Of a stretch of DNA of 43,311 nt, positions 8,047-43,289 are shown in pieces. This DNA comes from an uncultured cyanobacterium (GTDB lineage Bacteria > Cyanobacteriota > Cyanobacteriia > Leptolyngbyales > Leptolyngbyaceae): positions 1 to 43,311 of the forward strand of contig CAVYAN010000057.1 of NCBI GenBank assembly GCA_963766075.1. The letters are read 5' to 3'. The notes beneath the pieces were generated by a model. That model worked only from the letters and a program-made list of their open reading frames with translations. It searched no databases and was not told where the DNA came from. Made by a program: the position numbers and the translations under genes. The stretch's first letter is position 1. Each line of letters starts with the position of its first letter.

Positions 8047-8898
8047 ATGGGGGCACAACGTCTTGGGGGTGCTGTGGGAACCATTTTTCGGTTTAGAAGC
8101 AAAGCGTGGGCGATCGCGATTCTGGCGATGGTGTTGATTGGGTGTACTTGGATGGCGCAGTTTCCTGCGGGGAGTGATGTGCATCTGACTCTGGGCAATC
8201 CCAGCAATGCCCGCAGCGATCGCAGCCAGCCCGACAACTATCTTATTCGGCGTCCGCAGTATGTCTTGTCCTACAACAACAGTACACACATTCCCAATTG
8301 GGTGAGCTGGCAGCTAAAGGCATCGTGGTTGGGGCCTGTCCCCCGCAGCAATGATTTTCGTCCGGATGACAGTTTGCCGTCTGGATGGGTGCGGGTGACT
8401 GCTGCGGACTATAACGGGAGTGGCTACGATCGCGGCCATATGACGCCAGCGGGCGATCGCAGTAATACGCCCGAGGATAATTCGGCTACCTTTTTGATGA
8501 CGAACATTCTGCCCCAGGCCCCGGACAATAACCGGGGACCGTGGGAGGCCTTTGAAAGTTATTGCCGTTATCTGGTGAAGCAGGGCAAGGAACTCTACAT
8601 TGTTTCCGGTGGCTATGGAGAAAAGAAACGCATTTCGCCAAGGAAGATCGTAGTGCCCAGCCATATTTGGAAAGTGGTTTTGGTGTTGGATCAGCCTCAA
8701 AAAGGACTGGATGGAGTCACGGAAAATACGCGGGCGATCGCGGTGGATATGCCTAATGATCAGGGCATTAAAGATATCCGCTGGACAACCTATCGGGTCA
8801 CGATTCAAGATTTGGAAGCGAAAACGGGGTATCGGTTTTTGGCGAATTTGCCCGAAGCTATCCAGCAGCGGTTGAAGAGTCGAATTGATGGACGTTAG
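8047..8898 (+). CDS. nucA: DNA/RNA non-specific endonuclease (NucA/Serratia family), predicted lipoprotein
   Basis: Catalytic GYDRGHMTP motif, TFLMTNILPQAPDNNRGPW and LGNPSNA; lipobox LIGC. Confidence 0.92.
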   Translation: MGAQRLGGAVGTIFRFRSKAWAIAILAMVLIGCTWMAQFPAGSDVHLTLGNPSNARSDRSQPDNYLIRRPQYVLSYNNSTHIPNWVSWQLKASWLGPVPRSNDFRPDDSLPSGWVRVTAADYNGSGYDRGHMTPAGDRSNTPEDNSATFLMTNILPQAPDNNRGPWEAFESYCRYLVKQGKELYIVSGGYGEKKRISPRKIVVPSHIWKVVLVLDQPQKGLDGVTENTRAIAVDMPNDQGIKDIRWTTYRVTIQDLEAKTGYRFLANLPEAIQQRLKSRIDGR

Positions 8899-8899
8899 G

Positions 8900-8942
8900 T
8901 ATCGTCTGGAGAGATATCGTCTGGAGAAGTATCGTCTGGAGC
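8900..8942. repeat. 15-bp tandem repeat (TATCGTCTGGAG core) x3
   Basis: Copies start at 8900, 8915 and 8930, immediately after the nucA stop. Confidence 0.9.
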
Positions 8943-9153
8943 CATCTGTGGCTTCGACCGTGTGCCTGATTTGACACCTTCATGGGTATCTGGTGATGGC
9001 TGGATGGGGTGGCATGTTCCCCGCACTACCGCAGTTTTTTATGTGGTGACCGTGGGGTAGTCACGGCCACCCAGAAGAGTTTGCCTTTGCCGTGGTAAAA
9101 TCTTCATGCTATGCCCGACGTGTTTGGTCCCCTACTTCCGATAGGCCCTGATT

Positions 9154-11355
9154 ATGGTGGAGCCCGTTGTTCAAGCTGCAGTGATCACCATTTCTAGCAT
9201 TGTCAGCCGTGTGGTGTATGAGCATGGCGGTAAGCTGTTGGGCTGGATTGATCGCAAGCTAGATGAAAAGACGGATCAACGGATTGCGCGTGCTGCTGAA
9301 AAGTATTTGCAGAATTATCGCGATCGCCACGGCATTTTAAAAGTGCTGGGTATGCGGGAGCCGGTGGACTTGGAGTCGGTTTACACGACCGTACAGTTTT
9401 TAGACCGGGCCGATCTGCGCTGGTACGAATCGGTGGAGACTCTGGAAAAAGCCTATCGTCAGGCGGGGCAGCGCACCTTTCAGCCCAAGGACTCCGCCCG
9501 CAGAGATGGGTTACAAGTGGCCAATGAAAAACAGTACCTGATGGTGCTGGGTGGCCCGGGTGCGGGGAAATCCACCTTTTTGCGGCGAATGGGATTGGAA
9601 GTGCTGAACGGCGCAGACTACCAGCATGAATGCATTCCGGTGCTGGTTGAATTGAAAAATTTCAGTGTGGGTGCCCTCTCGTTGGAGCAGGCGATCGCGG
9701 AAGAATTTCGGATCTGTGGCTTTCCCGATCCCAATATCACCACGGCCAAATTGCTTGAGCAGGGCAAGCTCCTCGTGTTGTTGGACGGCTTGGATGAGGT
9801 GCCTACCCGCAATACCGATGACACGATTCGGCAAATTCAAAACTTTGTTGATCACTACGATCAAAATCGGTTTATTGCCTCCTGCCGGATGGCGGCCTAT
9901 CGGCATAATTTTCGCCGCTTCAGCGATGTGGCCATGGCGGAATTTGACCCAGCGCAAATTTGTCAGTTCATTAACAATTGGTTTAGCTCCACGTCTGATC
10001 AGCAAATGAACACGGCCCAGAAGTGTTGGGAGCTGTTGCAAAAGCCCGAAAATGCCGCTGCTAAGGAGCTGGCGCAGACGCCTCTATTGTTGACGTTACT
10101 GTGTTTGGTTTACGATCGCTCCCAAAATTTTCCTACCAACCGCAGCAGCCTCTACCGCAAGGCCCTGCGGGTTTTGCTGGAGGAGTGGGCTGCCGAAAAG
10201 CGTATCCTGCGGGACGAAATTTACCAGGGGTTGAACACAGAACTGGAGGAGATTCTGCTGTCGGAAATTGCCTATGGTGGCTATGCTGCCGATCGCTTGT
10301 TTTTCCAAAAGCGGGATCTGGTGGCGCAAATTCGAGAATTTTTAACCACGAACTTGAATGCGCCGAAGCATCTGGATGGAGAATCGGTGCTCAGTGCGAT
10401 CGCCATTCAGCAGGGCATTTTGGTCGAGCGGGCGGAGGGAGTTTTTTCGTTTTCGCATCTGACATTGCAGGAGTATCTGACGGCGCAATATATTGACGAC
10501 CACAATCTAACCGGGCAATTGGTGGCGCGTCACCTCACCCATGAACGGTGGCAGGAGGTCTTTCTGCTCGTGGCGGGACTGATGCGATCAGGCGTTGATG
10601 AATTGCTGCTGCGCATGGAGCGGCATGCCCAAAAACTGATCAGTACGCCTCGGTTGCAGGCGCTTTTGGACTGGGCTGATGCCACGACGATGGGCAGTCA
10701 AACTGCCGTGCGACCGGTGGCCCGACGAGCAGCGGCACTATTTTTTGCGGTGAATCGCGATCGCGCCTTGGAAATTGTGCGGATTTTCCACACGGAGCTA
10801 GGGCGGGCGTTGGACTTGGTGCGGGCGCTGGATTTGCTGCGATCGCCCCTACCGATTGCCACGGCTGACCTAAGTCGTGCTGTCAATTTGGCGCGATCGT
10901 TTAAGCCGGAGATTGCCCCTGCCCGCGCCCAGGCCCGCAACCGAATGCTGGCAACGGCCACCAGTCGCACGGTTGCCAAGGCGGTCACGCGGGCCTTGGC
11001 GGAGGAATTCCAGAAAAATCCTGTATTTGAAGATGTGAACTTTACCAGTTTGATTGCGCGGTTAGAAACGCTAAAGCTGCGATCGCCCAGTGCGAGCAAC
11101 CCGCCGGAAATGCTAGAAGCGTTCCATGGGCGGTTGTCTGCGACGTGGCTGCAGGCGCTGCGTTTGGAGGCAGACTGGGTCAATCTGTCCCCGTCGGAGT
11201 TGCAAGCGCTGGAACAATACCTCTATATCCATTGGCTGATGGTGCGCTGTCGGTTAGCGGCAGTGCGCCTATCGCCCGCGACCTGGAACGCTATTGAAAC
11301 CCGGATGTTAAAGCCCCCCAAGCGCATGGAATCTGGACCAGGATGCGGGCCATAG
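9154..11355 (+). CDS. NACHT-family STAND NTPase
   Basis: Walker A GGPGAGKST, Walker B LLVLLDGLDEV, TPLLLTLLC, winged-helix FSFSHLTLQEYLTA and a cyanobacterial C-terminal helical domain (YLYIHWLMVRC...WNAIETRML). Confidence 0.92.
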   Translation: MVEPVVQAAVITISSIVSRVVYEHGGKLLGWIDRKLDEKTDQRIARAAEKYLQNYRDRHGILKVLGMREPVDLESVYTTVQFLDRADLRWYESVETLEKAYRQAGQRTFQPKDSARRDGLQVANEKQYLMVLGGPGAGKSTFLRRMGLEVLNGADYQHECIPVLVELKNFSVGALSLEQAIAEEFRICGFPDPNITTAKLLEQGKLLVLLDGLDEVPTRNTDDTIRQIQNFVDHYDQNRFIASCRMAAYRHNFRRFSDVAMAEFDPAQICQFINNWFSSTSDQQMNTAQKCWELLQKPENAAAKELAQTPLLLTLLCLVYDRSQNFPTNRSSLYRKALRVLLEEWAAEKRILRDEIYQGLNTELEEILLSEIAYGGYAADRLFFQKRDLVAQIREFLTTNLNAPKHLDGESVLSAIAIQQGILVERAEGVFSFSHLTLQEYLTAQYIDDHNLTGQLVARHLTHERWQEVFLLVAGLMRSGVDELLLRMERHAQKLISTPRLQALLDWADATTMGSQTAVRPVARRAAALFFAVNRDRALEIVRIFHTELGRALDLVRALDLLRSPLPIATADLSRAVNLARSFKPEIAPARAQARNRMLATATSRTVAKAVTRALAEEFQKNPVFEDVNFTSLIARLETLKLRSPSASNPPEMLEAFHGRLSATWLQALRLEADWVNLSPSELQALEQYLYIHWLMVRCRLAAVRLSPATWNAIETRMLKPPKRMESGPGCGP

Positions 11356-19096: not shown

Positions 19097-19304
19097 CTAT
19101 CCAGGAACCTCTGTTATTCGGGCAATCTTAGTATTCAAACGGCTCAAGTGATGGGGATTGAGCGTCAGTATTCCAGCGGCCTCTGTCTTGAGCGTCGCTT
19201 GGGCAATTAGAGCATCAAAGATTCCACCACCAGGAAGGTTGAGTGCAGCCATTGGGGCGATCGCGGCTCGATAGTCTTGTGTTGTGAATAGTCTTGTGTT
19301 GTGA
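19097..19304 (-). pseudogene. C-terminal remnant of a PIN-domain (VapC-like) toxin
   Basis: 19276->19097 translates DYRAAIAPMAALNLPGGGIFDALIAQATLKTEAAGILTLNPHHLSRLNTKIARITEVPG*, with PIN-type DALIA and LTLN motifs. The N-terminal half is absent and a 17-bp duplication (19271-19304) breaks the frame. Confidence 0.75.
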
Positions 19305-19378
19305 ATGCAGGGCTTTGTATTCAGTGTTCAGGATTCACCGACACCGCATTTCCGGCATCACAGGCCAGTAGACTGAGG

Positions 19379-19624
19379 CTAGTCAGACAAAAAACGGCGC
19401 TGAAATTTTGGATCTCGCCGATCGCCTTTTCGGGAATTGCAGCTTTGGCACAGGGTATGGAGGTTGCTCAGGTCGTTGCTGCCGCCTTCTGCCAAGGGAA
19501 TGATGTGGTCGATGGTTAGTTTTTCAGTGGTGCCGCATTTTTGGCAGGTGTGATGGTCGCGATCGAAGACGTACAATCGCGCTGCTTCCGGGATTTCGAT
19601 CCGTTTGGTTTTCCGGGGTTGCAT
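19379..19624 (-). CDS. Small HNH endonuclease (zinc-binding, 81 aa)
   Basis: VFDRDHHTCQKCG...TIDHIIPLAEGGSNDLSNLHTLCQSCNSRK; GGAG RBS 9 nt upstream of the ATG. Confidence 0.92.
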   Translation of the reverse strand: MQPRKTKRIEIPEAARLYVFDRDHHTCQKCGTTEKLTIDHIIPLAEGGSNDLSNLHTLCQSCNSRKGDRRDPKFQRRFLSD

Positions 19625-19637
19625 GGGGATTGCTCCG

Positions 19638-20037
19638 TTAGCCCTCTACGATCTCAGTCTGGCGGAGCGCATCCAAAGGCGAATCGTCAGTTGCGGCTGC
19701 TTGAGAGTCTGCGGCTGATTCTTGTTCCGGTGGAATATCGGGTTCAAACTCAAATTCAAAGATAACTTTGACAGCAATTGTACCCTTTTGCCACCCTTTG
19801 CCATTGGGCTGCATCACTTCTCCACGAATCGGAGGATGAAAAGAGGGTCCTTATCCGGAATCCTTGCATGACCCTCGATTGCATAGATAATTGAACTGAT
19901 TTGGGCATAATCTCATACTTGAAAATATTCTCGAATAGCCGTGTCCAGTTGGTCAATTTTGAACACCCATTGACCCCAATTGAATCACGGTTCCTGGAGT
20001 TTGCACTGGGTGTTAAATCAATTTTTTTATCGCTCAT
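19638..20037 (-). CDS. KGK-domain protein 3 (several indels: sequencing error or pseudogene)
   Basis: Manual reconstruction: MSDKKIDLTPVQTPGTVIQLGQWVFKIDQLDTAIREYF...HPPIRGEVMQPNGKGWQKGTIAVKVIFEFEFEPD...DSPLDALRQ...EG*. The GWQKG, EF.PD and SPLD.LRQ hallmarks are present. Confidence 0.75.
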
Positions 20038-20177
20038 ATAGTTTTGCTCCATATCATTTAGCGTCAACAATCCCATTCAGAGTGCCCAACTTTAGAATCT
20101 TGCCATCTAGAATCTGAGCCCTGGTCCTGCTAGTCCAAGATCGGGATGCTGTCTCTAGGGCAAAATCGCAGCTCATC

Positions 20178-20532
20178 CTAGGTCTCCCCGTCAATAGCTT
20201 GACGCAAGCTATTTAAATCAGACTGTTCGGATTTTGTAGCATTAGAGATAGTGGGTGGGGCCTTGGGCGAAAACTCTAGCTGGAGCCGGACTAAACCAGA
20301 CTGCCAGCCTGTGGTATCTCCCCCACTTCTAAGGACTGCGCACTCAATCCCACGGCTAAACCAGTAGTACTTAACTTGGGACACATCGATGACTTAACTG
20401 GCTAAGTGCGAAAGTATGTGTAAAGCGTCCAAAACCAAAAACGATGAATCGCTCATTAAATTCAATTCTGACTCAACACTACATATGTCTTGCTCTGCTA
20501 GAGAAAACTGTTGTCGATATTTTGTAACTCAT
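20178..20532 (-). CDS. KGK-like domain protein 2 (one indel near the start and an in-frame TAA at 20394-20396)
   Basis: MSYK/YRQQFSLAEQDICSVESELNLMSDSSFLV...LAS*VIDVSQVKYYWFSRGIECAVLRSGGDTTGWQSGLVRLQLEFSP...SDLNSLRQ. Confidence 0.7.
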
Positions 20533-20803
20533 CTGAATTTTGATTTGGCTGCAAATCCCACATTTAGGCTAATTCGTCCCTTCTTGCCAACCGGTAAGAT
20601 TATGGTCTGATCGTAGAACTTTGGCTTCTATTCCTTCCCAATCCAGGAATATCTTCGTATCTGAAGAGAATAAATTTTGCACGATGTATCGGAGAGATGT
20701 CAGTAATTCAGAAGCCTTCATACAAAGTGGTTGCTTAGACTAGAACATGCGCTCCATGGTCGAGTCTAATCACATCTTCATCGGAAAGGGAGTAAAAATT
20801 CAT
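20529..20803 (-). CDS. KGK-like domain protein 1 (frameshifted; could be the N-terminal domain of a tandem-KGK protein)
   Basis: Fragments MNFYSLSDEDVIRLD / KQPLCMKASELLTSLRYIVQ...IFLD / EGIEAKVLRSDHNLTGWQEG / RISLNVGF. Starts 42 bp after the dynamin stop; its TGA overlaps the next ATG (ATGA, 20529-20532). Confidence 0.6.
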
Positions 20804-20845
20804 GGTTTTGACAATATAAGTTGAATGGTTGAAACAAGGCTAAGA

Positions 20846-23263
20846 TTAGGCGCTCAAAGACGATTCATAGAGAAGCGGGTCGCTGGGTTGAATCTCAATT
20901 AGCGGTAGCTTTTGTCGATCGCACCCCATCACTTCCAAGCAGGCATTCACCCCCGCGATCGCCGTGTTATATCGGCTCATATCTTGCTCAAGTTCGGCTA
21001 AAAGACTTTGGGAATTCCGCAGCTTCTCCTCCGCCTCCTTCTGCAACACTGCTGCCATGTATTGCCGTGCGCGATCGTACTGCTCTGAAATCACCTCCAC
21101 CTGCTGTCTCACCGCGGGTAACAGGTGGATATTCAGGGTTTGGTTGATTGTTTGTCGAAAGGTTTTCATTACGGTGGTCGAAACCTTTTGCTCAAAATCC
21201 ATTTTCAGCAATTGCCGAATCGCCGGTTCTGTATCGATCATGCTTTGGTAGTCATAGCCCTGACAGGCTTGCTGCAAGGTGGCTTGCAACTGAAACAGCG
21301 AAGCCGTCTCATCCGCAAAAAACTCTGGGCATTCCCGCACATAGCGATCGCACTCCGTTTGGGCCGCACTGACCAAGGCGTGCAATGTGTCCTGTTCGAC
21401 GCGATCCAGCAGGGCTTCGATGCCACTGTCATTACCCAACATCCGAAATAGATGGCGATAGTAGGGCTGCTGCGGAATCTGATCGCGCAATTGCTGAAAA
21501 AATAGTTGTGCCAGCGCTTCCGAAGCCCGCATCAACTCCTCTTCCAACCCATTGGCCAAATAGTAAAATGCCTCAGCTAAAATTCCCAACAACGGCACTA
21601 CGGAATTCCGCCGATGGCTACTCTGCGCCCGCCGATGCACTTCCCCCACCGAAAATCCCTTCAGGAGCTGATCAAGTTGTTGCACCATCGATCGCTGTAA
21701 TGCCACAAATTGCTTCTCAAACCCTTGATTTTGATTACTGGAAACCACTTGGTTGATTTCTTTTTCCAAATGCCGCTGAAATTCCTGCCCCACCTGTTGC
21801 AAATCCAGGCTGAGTTGTTTCAGTTCCTGGCCTTTCAGCGCTTCAATATCCGTGGGCTGGGCTTTGAGGCGATCGTACTCCTCCAGTAGGGCCTTCCGCA
21901 ATTGAATGCAAATCGGCTGAAGATCATCGGCTAAATTCACCAGCAAAAGGGGACGCTTCTCCTTCAGCAAATAATGGGTAATCGCAGTCCGAAAGGATTC
22001 AATCCCGCTGTCATGAATCAGTTGATCAATTAATGCCTGACCTTGTTCGCCCAAAATCCGCGCATAGTTCTGATTTGGGCTTTCATAGCTGCGGACATCA
22101 ATCCGAAACTGCTCAATCGGCAGCTTGCCCGAACTCGCGCAGTAGCGATTAAACTCGTTCACAAATTGCGGCGTATCTTCCTGGCCATCGCCGGATTGCA
22201 GCGAATTCGCAAACAGAGAGTCCAACCCAAAGCGATCGCCCGGTCCTGTTTGCCGCAATTGACTCCCCCAAAAGCCCAGCAGCCCACTGGTTTTATACAC
22301 CCGACTGGAATCGCGAAATTGTCTGTGAATTAATTGCTCTAGCCGCTGCCGCAGTTGGGTGTTGTACCAGGATTCATCGACGCGATTGAACGCATAGAAA
22401 ACCCGATCGCGAATCCCCGGATTGCGCCGCATCGTTTCGAGCAGTTCTGTCTCCTCCGTGGTCATATCCCCTGCCGATGCCACCTTAAGCACACAAACTA
22501 CCGCCGACGTTTCTGGATCTTGAATCTTCCCATAGGTTAGCTCAGCATCCTTACGCACCGGGGCATCAATACCGGGCGTATCAATCAAAACATTGCCATC
22601 CTGGAGCAGCGGATGGTGGCAGTAGTACTCAATGCGCTTTAGCACAGCGCTATTGACACCCCGACGGGCATAGCTGGCCGCCTCTTGCAAATCGGCAAAA
22701 TTAAGCTGCTCCATCGAAAGCGTACAATTGGCCTGCGGTTCAATGTGGGCCTGATTGACCTGAAAGCCCTGAATTAGGTACTTCAGGGCCGTCGCTTGTT
22801 TCGCGCGATCGGACTTGCTTTCGCCACCTTCGGCTTGAATGATGGCGATCGCCTCTGCCAACAGGACTGGCAAAATCTCCGGGTGCGGGTTAGAGAGATC
22901 CACCGTCAAGGCAAGGCGCTCAGCGATCGCGGCCACCTGTTCCCAGATTTCACGTTCTGACAGAAATGTCAGGACAACCCGCTCGGCATCGGCCTCAGCA
23001 TGGGCAATGCGGCATTCCGTCCCGGTCGCGTGGCCCTCCGCACTATAAAGCAATTCTCGCTCTAGCAGAGCATTGATCAACATCGACTTACCCGCACTAA
23101 ACGCGCCCGCAAACACAATGTCGAAACTGGGTGCGATCGCCTTTTTGAGCGAAGCCCGTACTGTACTGGTATCAAAGGATTGTAGTCGTGGCTGCTGGGC
23201 AACAAGCTGTAAAAGTTGATCGACACTGGGCTGTAGAGGCTGACATGGCGAGGGAGGATACAT
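20846..23263 (-). CDS. Bacterial dynamin-like GTPase, SynDLP (Slr0869)/KGK clade
   Basis: G1 FAGAFSAGKSMLINALL, G2 HATG, G3 DTPGID, G4-like NRVD and a long helical stalk. Cys7, Cys775 and an HRRN loop at 550 correspond to SynDLP features. Confidence 0.92.
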   Translation of the reverse strand: MYPPSPCQPLQPSVDQLLQLVAQQPRLQSFDTSTVRASLKKAIAPSFDIVFAGAFSAGKSMLINALLERELLYSAEGHATGTECRIAHAEADAERVVLTFLSEREIWEQVAAIAERLALTVDLSNPHPEILPVLLAEAIAIIQAEGGESKSDRAKQATALKYLIQGFQVNQAHIEPQANCTLSMEQLNFADLQEAASYARRGVNSAVLKRIEYYCHHPLLQDGNVLIDTPGIDAPVRKDAELTYGKIQDPETSAVVCVLKVASAGDMTTEETELLETMRRNPGIRDRVFYAFNRVDESWYNTQLRQRLEQLIHRQFRDSSRVYKTSGLLGFWGSQLRQTGPGDRFGLDSLFANSLQSGDGQEDTPQFVNEFNRYCASSGKLPIEQFRIDVRSYESPNQNYARILGEQGQALIDQLIHDSGIESFRTAITHYLLKEKRPLLLVNLADDLQPICIQLRKALLEEYDRLKAQPTDIEALKGQELKQLSLDLQQVGQEFQRHLEKEINQVVSSNQNQGFEKQFVALQRSMVQQLDQLLKGFSVGEVHRRAQSSHRRNSVVPLLGILAEAFYYLANGLEEELMRASEALAQLFFQQLRDQIPQQPYYRHLFRMLGNDSGIEALLDRVEQDTLHALVSAAQTECDRYVRECPEFFADETASLFQLQATLQQACQGYDYQSMIDTEPAIRQLLKMDFEQKVSTTVMKTFRQTINQTLNIHLLPAVRQQVEVISEQYDRARQYMAAVLQKEAEEKLRNSQSLLAELEQDMSRYNTAIAGVNACLEVMGCDRQKLPLIEIQPSDPLLYESSLSA

Positions 23264-23581: not shown

Positions 23582-23586
23582 CTCAG

Positions 23587-23859
23587 CGCGTTACTCAGTT
23601 TGATCGGCGTGTTAGTGAGTTTGATCGGCGTGTTAGTGAGTTTGATCGGCGTGTTAGTGAGTTTGATCGGCGCATTAATAATAAAATTTTATGCTGATCT
23701 AAGTGAAACATTAACGTTACTCGCTAACATCCGCGCACTCATAATAAAATCTTACGTTGATTTAAGTAAAACATAAGCGTTACTCAGTAACAGGCTGATC
23801 TAACTTTGTGCGATCGCAACGTTACTCGCTAACATCCGCGCATTCATAATAAAATCACG
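23587..23859. repeat. Array of 13 contiguous 21-bp modules
   Basis: CGTGTTAGTGAGTTTGATCGG x3 perfect (23608-23670) plus a variant at 23587. AACGTTACTCGCTAACATCCG occurs at 23713 and 23818; CGCA(T/C)T(A/C)ATAATAAAAT-type modules occur at 23671, 23734 and 23839. All are in exact 21-bp phase. Confidence 0.9.
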
Positions 23860-24002: not shown

Positions 24003-27000
24003 CTAACTTCCCCCAATCCGGGCCACATCCCGAGCATTCGCTTCAAACGCTGCCGTCAGCGCATCATCCCCGCTCAGGCCATCCTCCAGCGCCTGCTTCA
24101 GCGCCTGCAACACCCGCTTGTAGTCCTTCGGCATCACCTTCACAAACTGGGGCACCTTTTCCTCCCAGGTCGCCAGCACCTGCACCGCCTTTTGGCTGCG
24201 GGTATAGTTCGCATGCTGCTGAATCATCTCCCGCAGATCCGCGATTTCCTCCCCATCCTCCAGCTTCTCCAGACCCACCATTTGCTGATTGCAGCGCGTA
24301 GCAAAGTCCCCGGCTTCATCCAGAATATAGGCCACCCCACCGCTCATCCCTGCCGCAAAGTTGCGTCCCGTCAGACCCAAGACCACTACCTTGCCCCCGG
24401 TCATATATTCGCAACCGTGATCGCCAACGCCTTCGACAACGGCATTGACACCCGAATTGCGAACGCCAAAGCGTTCCCCGGCCATACCGCGAATGTAGGC
24501 TTCACCGCGCGTCGCGCCGTAAAAAGCCACGTTGCCCGCAATCACATTCTCCTCCGCCACAAAGGTGGAGGACTTGGGCGGATAGAGAATCAGTTTGCCG
24601 CCGCTGAGGCCCTTACCTAGATAGTCATTGGTATCCCCCTCCAATTCCAGCGTCACCCCTGCCGGGACAAAAGCCCCAAAGCTTTGGCCCGCACTGCCCT
24701 GGAAGTGCAGATGCACCGTATCCTCCGGCAAGCCTTCCCAGTGGCGCTTGGTGATTTCGTTGCCCAGGATGGTGCCCACCGCGCGATTGATGTTCTCGAA
24801 TCGGCAACGTCGCACTGACCGGGGTCACCGTTTTCAATCGCAGGCTGGCACAGATCCAGCAGTCTGGTGATGTCAAGGGATTTTTCCAGACCGTGATCCT
24901 GGGGAATCTGGCAGTAGCGTCCCACTTCAGGACCCGCTTCGGGCTGGTAGAGAATCTTCGAGAAGTCGAGGCCCTTAGCTTTCCAGTGGGCGATCGCCTG
25001 TTTCGGTTCCAGCACATCCGTCCGACCAATCATCTCATTCAGCGTGCGGAAGCCCAGTTGGGCCATCAGTTCCCGCACTTCCTGGGCAATAAAGGTCATA
25101 AAGTTGACCGTGTGAGCCGGGTCACCCGTAAAGTTCTTCCGCAGATAGGGATCCTGAGTCGCTACGCCCGACCGGACAGGTGTTCAGGTGGCAGACCCGC
25201 ATCATAATGCAGCCCAGGGTCACCAGCGGCGCAGTGGCAAATCCGAATTCCTCCGCCCCCAGCAATGCAGCAATGACCACATCGCGCCCCGTTTTCATCT
25301 GGCCATCGGTTTCGACTACAATCCGGCTCCGCAGATTGTTCAGCACCAGAGTTTGATGAGTTTCCGCCAAGCCCAATTCCCAGGGCAAGCCCGCATGCTT
25401 AATCGACGTTTGCGGTGACGCACCGGTGCCGCCATCAAAGCCCGAGATCAGCACCACATCAGCATGGGCTTTGGACACCCCTGCCGCAATCGTACCCACA
25501 CCCACTTCCGACACCAACTTCACACTGATGCGGGCGTCTCGGTTGGCATTCTTCAGGTCATGAATTAGCTCCGCCAAATCCTCAATCGAGTAAATATCGT
25601 GGTGTGGCGGTGGCGAAATCAAGCCCACACCGGGCGTGGAGTGGCGCACCTTGGCAATCCAGGGATACACCTTTTTCCCGGGCAACTGGCCGCCTTCCCC
25701 CGGCTTTGCCCCTTGGGCCATTTTGATTTGAATTTCCCGCGCCTGGGACAGGTAGAGACTGGTCACCCCAAATCGGCCCGAGGCCACCTGTTTGATAGCG
25801 CTGTTTTTGGAGTCGCCGTGCTCGTTCGTCCAGGTGTAGCGATCGGGGTCTTCGCCGCCTTCTCCCGTGTTGGACTTGCCACCAATGCGGTTCATGGCGA
25901 TCGCCAAGGACTCGTGCGCTTCTTGGGAAATCGAGCCGTAGCTCATCGCCCCGGTTTTGAAGCGCTTCATAATCGCCTCAACCGACTCCACCTCCTCAAT
26001 CGGGATCGCTTGACTCGGCTTAAATTCCAGCAGACCGCGCAGGGTAAAGTGCTGATGATTCTGCTCATTCACCAAGGCCGAATACTGCTTAAACAAATCG
26101 TACTTGCCCTCCCGCACCGACTTTTGCAGCGTGTGGATCGTTTGGGGACTAAACAGGTGGGCTTCGCCATCCTTGCGCCACTGGTATTCGCCACCCACAT
26201 CCAGGGTGTGATCCTGCACATCGCGATCGGGGAACGCATGACTGTGGCGGGCGATCGCCTCCTGGGCAATCACCGCCAAATCCGCTCCTTCAATCCGAGA
26301 CGCAGTCCAGGTAAAGTAGCGATCAACCACCGCTTGGTTCAAGCCAATCGCTTCAAAAATCTGCGCGCCGCGATAGCTTTGAATCGTGGAAATCCCAATT
26401 TTAGACGCGACTTTGACCACGCCCTTGGTCGCTGCTTTGACATAGTTTTTGCAAGCGGTGGCGAAATCTACATTCACCAGTAAGCCCTCGTCGATCATGT
26501 TGGCGATTGATTCAAAGGCCAAATAGGGATTAATTGCGCCGCAGCCATAGCCAATCAGGGTAGCGTAGTGGTGGACCTCACGCGGTTCCCCCGACTCCAG
26601 GATCAGGCCAACGCGGGTGCGGGTACCCGTCCGAATCAGATGATGATGCAATCCAGCCACGGCCAGCAACGCCGGAATCGGCGCGTGATCGGCATCAAGA
26701 CCACGATCGCTGAGCACAATCAAGCTCACACCCGCCGCAATCGCCCGATCCGCCTCAGCACAAAGGCTGGTCATCGCGGCTTCTAGCCCCGCGACACCTG
26801 ACTTCGGATCAAACAACATCGGCAACGTCACCGCTTGGAAGCCGCCCGTATTCACCTGTTGCAGCTTGGCTAACTCGGCATTGGTCAGGATCGGCGTTTT
26901 CAGCTCGATCAGGTGACAGCTTTCCGGCTCCGGCTTCAACAGATTGCGCTCCGCCCCAATTGTCGTTTCCGCCGAAGTGATAATTTCCTCCCGAATCGAG

Positions 27001-28598
27001 TCAATCGGCGGATTCGTCACCTGGGCAAACAACTGCTGGAAGTAGTCGTAGAGCAACTTGGGCCGATTGGACAGCACCGACAGCGGCGTATCCGACCCCA
27101 TCGCCCCCACCGCCTCTACCCCATCCCGCGCCATCGGGGTGAGCAGCATCCGCAATTCTTCAAAGGTATACCCAAAGGCAGTTTGACGTTGGGCCAGAGA
27201 AGCTGCGCTGACGGGTGCCACCGTGGCCGCCTCCGGCAATGCGGCCAGCTCCACCATATGTTGATTAATCCAGTCGCGATAGGGCTGGGCCGTCGCGATT
27301 TGGGTTTTGATTTCCTCATCGGTAATAATCCGCCCCTGGGCCATATCCACCAGGAACATGCGACCGGGCTGCAGGCGACCTTTGTGGGCCACCCGTTCCG
27401 GCTCAATCGGCAGCACCCCCGCTTCCGAAGCCATAATCACCAAATTATCGTGGGTGACGTAGTAGCGGGAAGGCCGCAGCCCATTGCGATCCAGTACGGC
27501 GCCCATCATCGTGCCATCGGTAAAGGCAATGGACGCGGGACCATCCCACGGCTCCATTAGGCAGGAATGGTATTCGTAGAACGCTTTTTTCGCATCGCTC
27601 ATGGACTCGTGGGCGGTCCAGGGTTCCGGGATCATCATCATCACGGCGTGGGGCAGCGATCGCCCCGCCAAGGTCAACAATTCCAAGGCATTATCAAAAA
27701 TCGTCGAGTCGCTGCCCTCGACGTTGATCACCGGCTGAATTTTCTTGATGTCCTCGCCAAATAACTCCGACTCAAACATAGACTGCCGCGCAATCATCCA
27801 ATTGATGTTGCCCCGCATCGTATTGATTTCGCCGTTGTGGGCAATGTAGCGGTAGGGGTGCGATCGCTCCCAGCTCGGAAACGTATTCGTACTAAAGCGG
27901 GAATGCACCAAGGCGAGGGCGCTTTCCATATCGGGATCCCGCAGATCCGCCGCATAGTACTGTCCCACCTGGGCCGTCATCAGCATGCCCTTATACACCA
28001 TCGTCCGGCAGGACAAACTGGCAGGATACCAGCAGGGATCGATCCCCGCCACGCGAATCGCCGTGTGGCTCAGCTTGCGAATCACGAACAGCTTGCGCTC
28101 AAAGGCCAAATCATCGGTCAAGTCTGCGCTGCGCTGGATAAACACCTGCTGCATAAACGGTTCGCTGGACTTGGCCGTATTGCCCATGGAACTGTTGTCC
28201 GTCGGCACATCGCGCCAGCCCAACACTTTTTGCCCTTCCGCCGCCGCAATGGTGGTGAAGATTTCGCGGGCCTGCGATCGCGCCTCGGCCATCCGGCGAC
28301 CCGTAGATCATGCCTACCCCGTATTCCCTGCTGGGGGCAACGTGATCCCCACTGCCGCCGCCACCTTGGTCAAAAAGCGGTGCGGCACTTGAAGCAGAAT
28401 ACCAGCCCCATCCCCCGTATTGGTTTCACAGCCACAGGCTCCCCGATGCTCCAGGTTTTCCAGCATGGCCAACCCCTGCTGGACGATCGCAGAGGACGGC
28501 TGTCCTTGCATGTGGACAATGAACCCGACCCCGCAGGCATCGTGCTCGAACTGTGGATCGTACAAACCCTGTTTGCGTGGCAGCCCGTTGCTATTCAT
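24003..28598 (-). CDS. gltB: Glutamate synthase large subunit (NADH-GOGAT GltB type), ~1530 aa after repairing five single-base indels
   Basis: [16 protein letters not shown] amidotransferase N-terminus, [49 protein letters not shown] and GXGXG C-domain. Indels at ~28327, ~28290, ~25168, ~24822 and ~24800. Confidence 0.95.
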
Positions 28599-28800
28599 GG
28601 GTAATGACCTATCAAAAACGAAGAGAGGATGGACAAGCGCCCCCAGCGCCTGAGAGTCCAACGGAAACTGGGTGACTGGAACCGGGGAAAGGAGCGCTGA
28701 GAGATTCAGACAAATCCGAAGTATTCCGGAGTATACCGCTCTGGGGAGATCGCATTGTGTAATGGAGAACGGGAGGAGCGCGTCGGTCTTAATCAAATTG

Positions 28801-29775
28801 TTAGATCTGGGCCAGATTTGGGTCCGATCCGGGTATGATTTGGCCGGGAAATCCTGACTTTGTTGCGTTTTGTAGCGGAGTCATTGGCTTTTCGACGCTG
28901 GGCGTCAGTGAGATCAAATCCGCCAAGTTGCGCCGCATTGTCGTACAAATCGCGTCCAGAGGTAAATCATTGGCATCTCGGCCAAAGGGATTCTCAATTT
29001 CCACCCCGATCGCCTCAATCCCAAACAGGGTAAAGCTGACCAGAGCGACAATGGGTCCGGTCCACCAGCCCACATTGCCCACCACCTGAAACGGCAACGA
29101 CAGGCAATACAGCAGCAGCAATTGCTTCAGGTGAATGGAGTACGCCACCGGAATCGGCGTCTTCAAAATGCGTTCACACCCCCCCAGGGCATCCACCATG
29201 GCGTTGAGCAACTGCTGCATCTCCATCAGTTGGTGAGATGTTCAGACTTCTGCTGATCGGCCTGCTGCTGCAAATAATCCCCAATCCAAAAGGCAATTTC
29301 CAAGGGTGGATGGTTCATTTCCCGCAGGGTATAGTAATTCTCCGGCGGCAGCAAATCTTCAGTTCCGGCGATCAGTGGGTTCCTGCCGCAAATGCAGCTT
29401 GGTCGCGACACAGAAGGCCACCAACATCCGCATGGCCGCTATTTTCTGGGTCGCGATCGCTGCTGCGGTAACGGCGATCGCAATCCAGATTTGCCGCGCC
29501 AAGTTGCGCACGAATTGATCAACACGCCCCAGCATCTTCCGTCCCTCCCAAAACCGCTCATAGGCGGTATTCGTCCGAAATACCAGCAGCAACCCCAGCA
29601 CAATATTGGGAATGAAACTCACCAAAAACGGCAGTGCCACTGGCACATTCAAAGCAAATAAGCCCGACAACACCACCCCAAACAGCCCACAGAGCAGGGT
29701 GCGGCCCATGACCACAGGCAGCACCGACCCTTTCAGTTGCAGGGCCACCCGAAACCACCGGTTTTTCTCACTCAC
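28801..29775 (-). CDS. Bestrophin family (YneE-like) ion channel, frameshifted
   Basis: [52 protein letters not shown] and [15 protein letters not shown], spread over three ORFs. Confidence 0.9.
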
Positions 29776-34744: not shown

Positions 34745-36332
34745 CTAGTCCACTTCACTCAGAACACGTTCTTCTTCGGCAATTTCGGCCTGTCGCTGTT
34801 GAATCATCACCCCCTGAGGCGGACCTTGAAAGCGCCGTTGCTCGTAGATAAACCAAATGGCAGCCGTCGCCACGAGCGCCCCAAAGGTAACACCGAGGGC
34901 CTTGTCATTGGGGGGTCGGACCCCAATAAAGATCAATAAACCACAGATCAACACACACAGACCTGCCACCAGGGGAAACCATTTGCCAATCGTCCAGGGA
35001 CCCATTTGCGTCCAAGAGCGCCCATAGGCAAACAATCCCAACGCCGATGGAATCACGTAGGAGATGTACAGGAAGATCACACAAACGGCGGTAATGGTGG
35101 AATAAACCGGGGTATAAACCGTGAAGGCGATCGCCATCAATGAAACCGCCCAAATCGCAAACACAGGCGTGCGGTACTTGTGGCTGATGGTGCGCAGCTT
35201 ATGGGAAAGCGGCAACCCGCCATCTCGGGCAAACGCAAACGCCATCCGCGAGGTGGACGTCACGGTGGCCAAACCGCAAAGATACTGCGATACCCCAATC
35301 CCGAAGAACAGCAAAAGCCGCAGGGGCGTGGGCAACACAGTATTCATCAGCCAATAAAACGCATTCGGCCCTTGAGCTGCGGCATCATTCATGTTGGGGA
35401 AGGCCAGAACAACGGCACACAGCATAAACCAGCCAAACACCCCCGACCACAATACCGAATAAACAATCCCTCTGGGCACGCGACGAGCCGCTCCAATGGT
35501 TTCCTCAGAGGTATGGGCAGAGGCATCAAATCCAGTAATGGTATAGGCCGGCAGCATCAATCCCACTAAAAACAGCAAGAACAGATTACTCGTTTCAGGC
35601 CAAACATTGCCCCCAGCCGGACCACTGTAGTTCGTAAACGTCACAAGACGGGACAGATCCAAGCCATTCTTAAACGAAAAGAACAGCAATACCAGCGTCA
35701 ACGCTGTCGATACGCCAAAAATCAAGTACCCACTCAAATCAGTTAGCTTGGAGGTTAAGCGGATGCCGAAATGGTTGAACAAGGCCTGGGAAAGGGTAAT
35801 CACCGCCACCCCAATGGTCTGCACCAGCAGTACTGTACCGGCATCCAGTTTCGTGGGGTCAAACCCGACGAGCGGCCCAAAAGCCCCAACAAAGAACAGG
35901 TAGGTGCCTACGTTGATGGCTGCCAACACCGTAACCAGACCCACCAAATTAAACCAGGCCGTCGAGCCACCCCCAGCCTTTACCCCCCAAAATCGAAGCC
36001 CAGTGATATAAACCACCCGCCGTTGGAAAGGCCGAGGCAATTTGGGCCATTGCCAGGGCCACCAACAGGGACAGGACACAACTGAATGCCCAACCAATCC
36101 CAATCGCAGCACCACCCACGCTACTCAGCCCGAGGTGAAAGGAGTTGATCCCGCCGGAAAGGATACAAATGATCGAAAAAGAAACAGCGAAGTTAGAAAA
36201 CCCACTCATTTGCCGCAGCAGTTCCTGGGCGTAGCCAAGGTTGTGCAGCGTTTTCACATCTTCTCTAATGAGCGATTCTTCTGACTCTGGTAGGGCCGAC
36301 GGCGGCGGATCGGACGACGGGTGGTTTCTCAT
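34745..36332 (-). CDS. APC-superfamily amino acid/amine permease (one +1 indel near 35966)
   Basis: LGYAQELLRQMSGFSNFAVSFSII, SAFPTAGGLYHWAS, GFDASAHTSEET and SRMAFAFARDGGLP, joined across ORFs 35949-36332 and 34745-36115. Confidence 0.9.
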
Positions 36333-41847: not shown

Positions 41848-43289
41848 TTATTTCTCTAAGTATTTCTCTAAGGGAACAGACTCCAAAGTCGGCCCCTCTA
41901 AACAGCCTGAAACGGCACAGTTATTCCCCAGGGTATTCCCCATGGGCATCACCAAACTTAACCCCAAGGCACAGAGCGATCCCGCACAAATCCCCGATTG
42001 CAGCACACTTCTTGCCCCCAAGGGCAGGGGAGCCAGCACTTCGGGAAAGAACGTCACCCCCAGGCCCGCCGCCAAGGAAATGGCCAAAATCACTAATTGC
42101 CGATTGTCCATATCAATTTCCTGAAGGATGTTCCATCCCGCCGCCACCACCCGGCCAAACATGAGCATTAGCGCTCCACCCACAACTGCCGTGGGCAGCG
42201 CTAATAGCCCACCACCAGCACCGGGCATAGACCTAAACCCATGAGAATGGCCGCAATGTAATAGCCAACATAGCGACTGCCTACGCCAGTCAGTTGAATA
42301 ATGCCGTTGTTCTGGGCTGGGGTAACAACCGGGAAAGTCCCACAGCAGGCGGCGATTAAGGAGTTAATTCCATCGCCCAACACCCCAGCCTTCAGGCGTT
42401 GCATATAAATCGGTCCGACAATGGGTTCACCCGACACGAGGGAGGTGGCCGTTAAATCGCCCAAGACTTCCAGGGTCAGCGTGATGTAAACAATCGCAAA
42501 GGAGAGAAACGCCGCCCAATCAAAATCCAACCCCATATGGAAGGGTCGCGGCAAATTCACCCAGGGTAATGCGTCAACCGCTCTGAAGTCAGCCATGCCC
42601 CATGCCATCGCCACCCCCGATCCCACCCCCAAACCGATGATCACCGATCCCATGCGTAAATAGCGATTCGAGCTGGCACTACACATTCCAACCAAGACAA
42701 ACACCAGCACCGCTAACGCCCAATTTTGCCAACTGCCAAAGGCCAGTGGGCTGTCCGGCATCGTGATGGCGATCGCCCGTGCTTTAGCACCGCCCGCCAT
42801 GTAAAACATGCCTTCCTTGAGTAAGCACAGCCCAATTAGAGTCACCGCTGTCCCGGTAACCAATGGCGTAAAAATTCGGCGCGTCAGGTGCAAACAGCGA
42901 CTCATGATAATCGGAATCAAAGAACCAAAAAAGCACAGCCCCAGCACCAGCGCTAGCGCTTCCTCAGGAGTTTTGCCTTTACTGAGCGCGGTATCCACCA
43001 CCGCTAAAATCGGCGTTACGAAGGCAAAACTCGTGCCCTGCACACTGAGCAATCCAGAACCAATCGGCCCCACCTGATAGCACTGAATAAACGTACCCAA
43101 TCCCGACACAAACAGAGACATGCCCATGATGTAGACAGCACTCTCTCCCGACACGCCCAGCGCACTCGTAATCAACAATCCGGGAGTGACCACGGGAATC
43201 AAAATAGCGCACACATGCTGCAAAGCGACTAGCAAGGCATCCCTAGGGGGCGGTTGATCGTTCAAGCCATAGACTAGATTAGACCGCAC
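41848..43289 (-). CDS. NCS2 nucleobase:cation symporter (xanthine/uracil permease), frameshift near 42215; start may lie beyond the window
   Basis: ALQHVCA, GSGLLSVQGTSFAF, EVLGDLTATS, NAT-like motif AQNNGIIQLTGVGSR and PTAVVGGALMLMFG. Confidence 0.9.

Follow-up and report, generated by a model that had tools for sequence, protein, structure and literature searches.

The KGK clade of cyanobacterial dynamin-like proteins (DLPs) was defined by Jilly 2018 (PMC5827413), and SynDLP (Slr0869; structures in PDB: 7zw6, 9em7-9) was described by Gewehr 2023 (PMC10104851) as the closest bacterial relative of the dynamin/Drp/Mx proteins; here and below, statements on these two papers and on PMC4759255 and PMC7159879 refer to the available excerpts of their texts. 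Accessory proteins were expected to restrain the SynDLP GTPase, and a role in membrane repair upon phage attack or stress was suggested (PMC10104851). In these excerpts both papers name one KGK neighbour, to which no function is assigned, and HNH nucleases are absent from the main texts; in the supplement of Jilly 2018, 9 of the 19 KGK-clade members have KGK and 3 have HNH as their listed neighbour, uncommented. In a literature search for the three-part cluster, which lay outside subscription journals and included the supplement of Jilly 2018 only, these were the only two papers bearing on it, and the available excerpts of PMC9950537, PMC12454622, PMC8875361 and PMC11381338 contain nothing on KGK or this HNH. 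In this work, we analyzed a dynamin, KGK and HNH gene cluster in a 43,311-nucleotide stretch, hereafter the window, from an uncultured cyanobacterium of the family Leptolyngbyaceae (contig CAVYAN010000057.1, assembly GCA_963766075.1). The cluster belongs to the known dynamin clade, which has an under-described but real third partner (the HNH nuclease) and a hypervariable KGK array. Across cyanobacteria, DLP-(KGK)0-7-HNH is an old and mostly vertically inherited cluster with a constant core and a fast-turnover KGK array; in the window, the core (dynamin and HNH) is intact and the KGK array decayed. The new elements are the decayed state of this copy, a probable fusion of two of its KGK genes, the quantified turnover of the array and the wider KGK family.

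Several described systems share individual features with this locus. Eleos has an anti-phage role and has in common with the present locus, as does DynA of B. subtilis, a dynamin-family GTPase; to our knowledge, neither Eleos/LeoABC nor DynA comes with a KGK array or an HNH gene. LeoA matches the window's DLP in the GTPase motifs only (E 2e-7 over 29 residues) and the DynA model scores 34.5 bits against a cut-off of 1600, that is, similarity at the P-loop level only; neither a second dynamin nor LeoB or LeoC was found at the locus. The anti-phage role of DynA is cited in PMC10104851. In Septu (PtuAB), a small HNH protein is likewise encoded downstream of an NTPase, and the window's HNH gives a weak match to the PtuB profile (E 4e-5); however, the neighbouring NTPase here is a dynamin GTPase and not an AAA/ABC ATPase such as PtuA, and the HNH protein, at 81 aa, carries no extra domain. 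A parallel in design, a constant core with variable modules, is provided by the NTP-dependent conflict systems (DO-GTPase/GAP1 and others; Kaur 2020, PMC7159879), in which a constant GTPase switch is combined with rapidly varying non-enzymatic modules proposed to be sensors. Unlike those systems, the present cluster has no GAP1, EAD or vWA part, and its nuclease is constant while the adaptors vary; the words 'KGK' and 'dynamin' do not occur in that paper. The excerpts of the KGK-clade papers do not cover array size, turnover or two-domain forms, and the locus further differs from those papers in that its KGK genes are broken.

The coupling of the dynamin and HNH genes was assessed in 401 genomes of the class, among which DLP was detected in 136, PF08872 (the KGK domain) in 189 and HNH, at E<=1e-18, in 138; 136 DLP loci from 135 other genomes were mapped, and searches for related loci recovered 6 and 3 loci. 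The earlier note on this DNA had named rare adjacency of HNH to DLP and KGK elsewhere as an outcome that would speak against it. This outcome did not occur: among loci with at least 5 kb of sequence downstream of DLP, a co-oriented HNH gene lies within 6 kb downstream in 84 of 117, covering 45 of 56 genera, and no HNH was seen upstream in the upstream sequence fetched (4 kb or less). Because this adjacency recurs across other genomes, we regard the coupling as real. At the genome level, as counted from listed matches in frames of at most 140 aa (16 unlisted matches and 8 genomes without a listed match were excluded), DLP and HNH co-occur in 111 genomes, DLP alone is found in 24, HNH alone in 10 and neither in 255, so that HNH is present in 111/135 genomes with DLP vs 10/265 others. 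These counts are inflated by kinship, although the pattern spans most of the families having DLP. For 17 of the 33 loci lacking an adjacent HNH, the gene was found elsewhere in the genome. The distances of DLP and HNH correlate (Mantel r 0.52, p 0.002, n 83), and the two proteins of the window share their near relative outside the window's family. A FastTree phylogeny of DLP, computed for one subset, mostly follows families with a few misfits, e.g. the window's DLP, which pairs with that of another family. Three lineages (g43, g84 and g57; loci L049, L051, L058, L146 and L150, five genomes searched) carry DLP and up to 7 tailed KGKs, and this HNH was not found in them.

The order on the minus strand in the window is DLP, KGK-like material and HNH (Table 1), as the earlier note had described it, and the spacings given there agree with the letters: an ATG (20803) lies 42 bp past the DLP stop, and 13 bp including a GGAG separate the last KGK stop (19638) from the HNH ATG. 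Its description of five tightly packed units stands, as genes, for DLP and HNH, which are open, and fails for the KGK genes (termed KGK1 to KGK3 below), none of which is an open frame.

Table 1. Features of the dynamin, KGK and HNH cluster, in window positions
Feature	Positions	Strand	Basis
SynDLP/Slr0869-type dynamin-like GTPase	20846..23263	-	805 aa, intact open frame
Broken KGK relic A, two KGK domains (KGK1 and KGK2)	20178..20803	-	Frameshift-aware alignment; colinear with intact L022/P0151
Broken KGK relic B (KGK3), single domain, acidic linker, SPLDALRQ tail	19638..20037	-	Frameshift-aware alignment and Pfam
GGAG motif resembling a ribosome-binding site, 8 nt before the HNH ATG	19633..19636	-	Sequence only
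Stand-alone HNH (HNN-type) nuclease	19379..19624	-	81 aa, intact; HNH_5 E 6e-18 (Pfam)

The dynamin shares characteristic sequence features with the KGK-clade DLPs, the downstream KGK genes being represented by broken relics. It matches Dynamin_N (Pfam, E 3e-15) and aligns with Slr0869/7zw6 over residues 6-789 (940 bits), which makes it a full-length SynDLP orthologue; the GTPase motifs G1 (GAFSAGKS, K60), G2, G3 (DTPG) and G4 (NRVD) are kept, and Cys7 and Cys776 correspond in the alignment to C8/C777, which form the BSE disulfide in SynDLP. The HPRN site reads HRRN, a variant shared by 21 of 88 aligned orthologues. The HNH protein has the beta-beta-alpha-metal motif (DH...N...N/H) with zinc cysteines and is a predicted nuclease; its zinc site (C27/C30/C59/C62) and residues D39-H40, N54 and N63 are conserved in 85-86 of 86 orthologues.

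Pfam detects PF08872 between these two genes only as two C-terminal fragments (20178-20393 and 19638-19850). When the stretch was aligned, allowing for frameshifts, to a profile derived from related loci, three KGK domains were recovered with scores of 65, 122 and 143, compared with 19-28 for shuffled DNA. None of the three has an open frame over the ~110-aa PF08872 domain. In relic A, frame changes near 20737 and 20583 and stops at 20531-20529 and 20396-20394 were identified (an alternative reading requires 4 frame changes and 1 stop), and relic B contains 2-3 frame changes between ~19970 and ~19895 and a stop at 19851; the KGK stretch as a whole has 4-5 frame changes and 3 in-frame stops in 1,165 bp. 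A fourth relic was sought in 20180-20000 and rejected (score 28.9 vs shuffles up to 34).

KGK1 and KGK2 were probably one fused two-domain gene. Together they comprise 208 codons that align end to end with the 204-aa P0151 (score 200 vs 25-30 shuffled), an intact two-domain KGK gene occupying the same position behind the closest dynamin (74% DLP identity) at locus L022, whose source is labelled Leptolyngbya foveolarum. One frame runs through the final strand of KGK1, the linker and the body of KGK2, interrupted only by the TGA of an 'ATGA' at 20532-20529. The earlier note had read these letters as an overlap of two genes; they are present as stated, but their ATG opens only 17 unrelated codons in a frame other than that of the KGK2 body. 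Since the two domains probably form one gene, the overlap is likely spurious. Two coupled genes, the less likely reading, would need as many lesions. Half-length relatives are known (P0159, P0160 and P0162). The stretch most likely holds three KGK domains in two broken genes.

It has to be asked whether these breaks exist in the cell. The genome (5.05 Mb, 126 contigs, 84.9% complete) could have been poorly polished in a strain-variable stretch, and the KGK genes would then be intact. Indeed, the conserved genes of this assembly do carry background frame changes (30 in 259 genes and 299,622 bp, or 0.10/kb), and gltB, the orange carotenoid protein, bestrophin and two permease genes in the window are also split; extra bases account for most of the KGK breaks, and contigs of a close relative (X3) show gaps exactly in the array, one of which leaves a net difference of one base at the 20737 break. 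Against this, the background predicts 0.12 frame changes in the 1,165-bp array where 4-5 are needed (P 7e-6 to 2e-7, and still 2e-4 to 1e-5 at an assumed background of 0.25/kb), and three in-frame stops come in addition, while DLP and HNH are free of any. The same X3 contigs differ from the window by ~2.5% without gaps in DLP and by ~12% with many gaps in the array, a substitution level as in neutrally decaying DNA. Background errors show no insertion bias (14 vs 13), such a bias in the array is not diagnostic of sequencing error, and a further broken gene, a PIN-like relic, comes directly after HNH. On this balance, assembly error seems a rather unlikely cause, and real decay of the KGK genes is the probable one. 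The relic after HNH (19097-19380, minus strand), which we take from its motif to be PIN/VapC-like, gives only a weak DUF1375 match in Pfam, and a 17-bp tandem duplication lies near 19270-19303. The other split genes, which probably reflect assembly indels, are gltB (four pieces, 24003-28796) and those at ~14900, 28801-29775, 34745-36332 and 41848-43289 (orange carotenoid protein, bestrophin, amino-acid permease and xanthine permease). The present copy is unsuited to cloning, for which intact loci, for example L039, L100 or L056, are better.

At other loci the array between the constant DLP and HNH genes is highly variable. In 86 loci, KGK copy numbers of 0 (17 loci), 1 (26), 2 (19), 3 (15), 4 (3), 5 (4) and 7 (2) were found, and the median identity within an array is 24% (maximum 55%, 139 pairs). 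Between loci whose DLPs are at least 95% identical, 32 of 111 KGK comparisons lack a counterpart of at least 50% identity, while HNH is 98% identical; this comparison uses overlapping pairs and full-length single domains only. Copy-number variation and turnover thereby strengthen the earlier suggestion of several divergent accessory domains. The synonymous distance of KGKs reaches 0.39-0.59 vs 0.06 for DLP in some pairs, pointing to allele exchange. KGK genes have a lower GC content than DLP in 76 of 77 loci, vs 39 of 83 for HNH, and the family forms 1773 clusters at 50% identity. Pooled over close pairs (13/16), dN/dS is 0.08 for DLP, 0.12 for HNH and 0.25 for KGK (N-part 0.32, core 0.12, tail 0.21), with purifying selection weakest in the N-half; these values, none of which exceeds 1, show that intact KGKs are functional. 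A further 29 partial KGK matches in 23 other loci are a mixture of true relics and divergent N-termini and were not counted as pseudogenes.

In the predicted structure of an intact KGK from L039 (pLDDT 79.9, pTM 0.60), a small alpha/beta domain is followed by a flexible acidic linker and, at the terminus, by a short helix (LDDIR); the monomer model places the last strand poorly. The fold search against PDB and BFVD gave a best Z of 2.5 and nothing at E<0.001, the KGK profile matched no solved structure, and the Atlas search returned no usable match. Two- and four-domain KGK forms recur (family profile match of the four-domain form, 96.7%), and this recurrence of natural tandem forms suggests that KGK domains pair. 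A search for longer KGK fusions scored 7999 candidates and found none, a negative result of little weight. The LDDIR tail is kept in g43, g84 and g57, which have DLP and arrays without this HNH, whereas 6 of the 8 KGK matches listed for DLP-negative genomes lack it; it is suggestive only that the tail goes with DLP more than with HNH. A tail count of 151/162 is circular, its rows having been picked for full profile coverage, and was not used.

The earlier note read the cluster as a sensor-scaffold-effector module. DLP-HNH coupling and KGK variability agree with this reading; on the other side, the KGKs are broken here and the usual marks of defence systems (carriage on plasmids or phages, neighbours typical of defence islands) were not found. 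In a more specific form, to which we assign about an even chance, the cluster would be a conflict module of the 'constant switch plus variable non-enzymatic sensor' type, with a constant dynamin and nuclease core that acts against invaders and takes its specificity from swappable KGK adaptors. The binding and activation steps that we infer are as follows. The variable N-terminal helical half of each KGK would bind a changing foreign ligand, the conserved beta-core (G-x-x-C...W-x-x-G-K...EF-x-P) would pair KGK domains, and the acidic linker with the LDDIR helix would dock on a constant partner, for which the dynamin filament is the likeliest candidate. Ligand binding would then release or stimulate the GTPase, leading to membrane remodelling or sealing, and recruit the HNH protein to cut DNA. 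A strain with obsolete KGKs would lose them and keep the core, as in the present genome. The membrane repair upon phage attack or stress suggested for SynDLP (PMC10104851) and the joint rise of slr0868-0871 in a lexA mutant (PMC4759255) also count in favour of a conflict module.

A number of observations weigh against such a function. The window's KGKs cannot be a working sensor or scaffold as assembled, because they are broken. No dN/dS above 1 was found for DLP, HNH or KGK in the pooled close pairs. DLP had no match in 72,556 plasmids, and one KGK (from L039) had none in 50,697 phage records. A PADLOC scan at 1e-20 of 145 flanking open reading frames from 57 loci, with no control set scanned, yielded one type III methyltransferase and seven Uma2/PDC-S03 matches, along with four look-alike ABC/GlgB matches; with 8 plausible frames of 145, the DLP flanks do not look like defence islands, although toxin-antitoxin, restriction-modification and Uma2 genes are inserted inside the DLP-HNH interval. 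Largely vertical descent points the same way, as the DLP tree indicates. SynDLP is non-essential yet expressed under standard growth (PMC10104851). HNH is missing from 24 of 135 DLP genomes and a Pfam KGK match from 17 of the 111 genomes with DLP and HNH, so no partner is obligatory, and HNH and KGKs are each dispensable in some lineages. Finally, KGK domains are also found in contexts that look like housekeeping: all of the 60 genomes from the window's family (60 of 60) have a solo KGK match, most of them without the dynamin, and of the 14 loci encoding four-domain KGK proteins (L211-L224), 11 have a GvpL/GvpF gene beside them.

Several of these observations would fit a housekeeping stress module, in which SynDLP repairs or remodels thylakoid membranes, KGKs act as generic regulators that damp its GTPase and the same stress calls on HNH to clear or repair DNA, while the array drifts by duplication and loss at similar 3' ends. 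The vertical DLP tree, the lack of any plasmid, phage or island signal and the KGK folds in conserved non-defence loci (next to ccsA, as solo copies and next to GvpL/F) are consistent with it, as is the likeness of tail-coding DNA, 89-95% over ~40-50 nt between some array members. Membrane repair has been proposed in print (PMC10104851, PMC9950537), and slr0868-0871 are upregulated 6-16x together, with salt-stress genes, in a lexA mutant (PMC4759255, Table 1). However, a regulator of a GTPase conserved at 60% would need neither replacement between loci with 95-99% DLP identity nor AT-richness nor 1773 clusters. A conserved LexA/SOS box upstream of DLP was also rejected (0/128 vs 1/640 controls; looser form, 8/128 vs 12/640), which speaks against this explanation as well. 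We consider a housekeeping stress module unlikely.

Alternatively, the KGKs could be an immunity or antitoxin array, directed against HNH or the toxins of rivals and lodged between two conserved genes like the orphan immunity arrays of polymorphic toxins. KGK proteins are acidic (median isoelectric point 4.8) and HNH proteins basic (9.4), no more than 30 bp separate the last KGK stop from the HNH start at 36 of 70 loci, there are orphan arrays in which KGK genes are interspersed with that of a 150-aa protein, and toxin-antitoxin pairs, Uma2 genes, a restriction-modification pair and transposases have also been inserted in the DLP-HNH interval. Polymorphic toxins would nevertheless be expected to vary, whereas this HNH does not: it tracks DLP and occurs without Pfam-detectable KGK in the 17 genomes mentioned above. 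KGK arrays, in turn, persist where this HNH is absent, and here an intact HNH stands beside broken KGKs. An immunity array appears quite improbable.

Returning to the conflict module, its conserved nuclease partner and diversifying KGK array are candidates for the accessory proteins expected of SynDLP. More tentatively, SynDLP might be the core of an Mx-like cyanobacterial immune system, with specificity given in trans by swappable KGK adaptors, whose fold is apparently unsolved, and with a dedicated HNH coupled to it; this extension is conceivable rather than probable. If the cluster is defensive, the antiviral role of Mx-type dynamins would be linked to a bacterial relative, in combination with a modular change of specificity. 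The present locus specifically contributes a case of KGK decay beside an intact dynamin and an intact HNH.

The KGK family extends beyond the DLP loci. An intact tail-less solo KGK is located downstream of ccsA (L001:1339-1767, minus strand; G000:C72). The proteins of 545-766 aa encoded in L211-L224 combine up to four KGK-like domains with an N-terminal hairpin that weakly resembles MazG; a two-domain relative follows HNH in L064, and partial KGK matches occur at that place in L054, L056, L057 and L069. In L225-L230, a KGK domain is fused to a long acidic tail, at the end of which a conserved PWD-containing motif is found. The 150-aa protein of the orphan arrays (L181-L183 and L193) has no Pfam or NCBIfam match. 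In L187 (2472-4303), a dynamin 3' fragment lies together with three KGKs on a contig other than that of the remaining dynamin of that genome, beside an unannotated 493-aa gene.

No Rfam match was obtained, and promoter and terminator scans performed at chance level. Between gltB and the dynamin promoter region (23583-23856), 21-bp tandem repeats in four copies and 63-bp repeats were found. On the plus strand at 8047-11355, a DNA/RNA non-specific endonuclease gene is followed by a gene for a 733-aa NACHT-NCH2 protein, possibly a separate defence pair.

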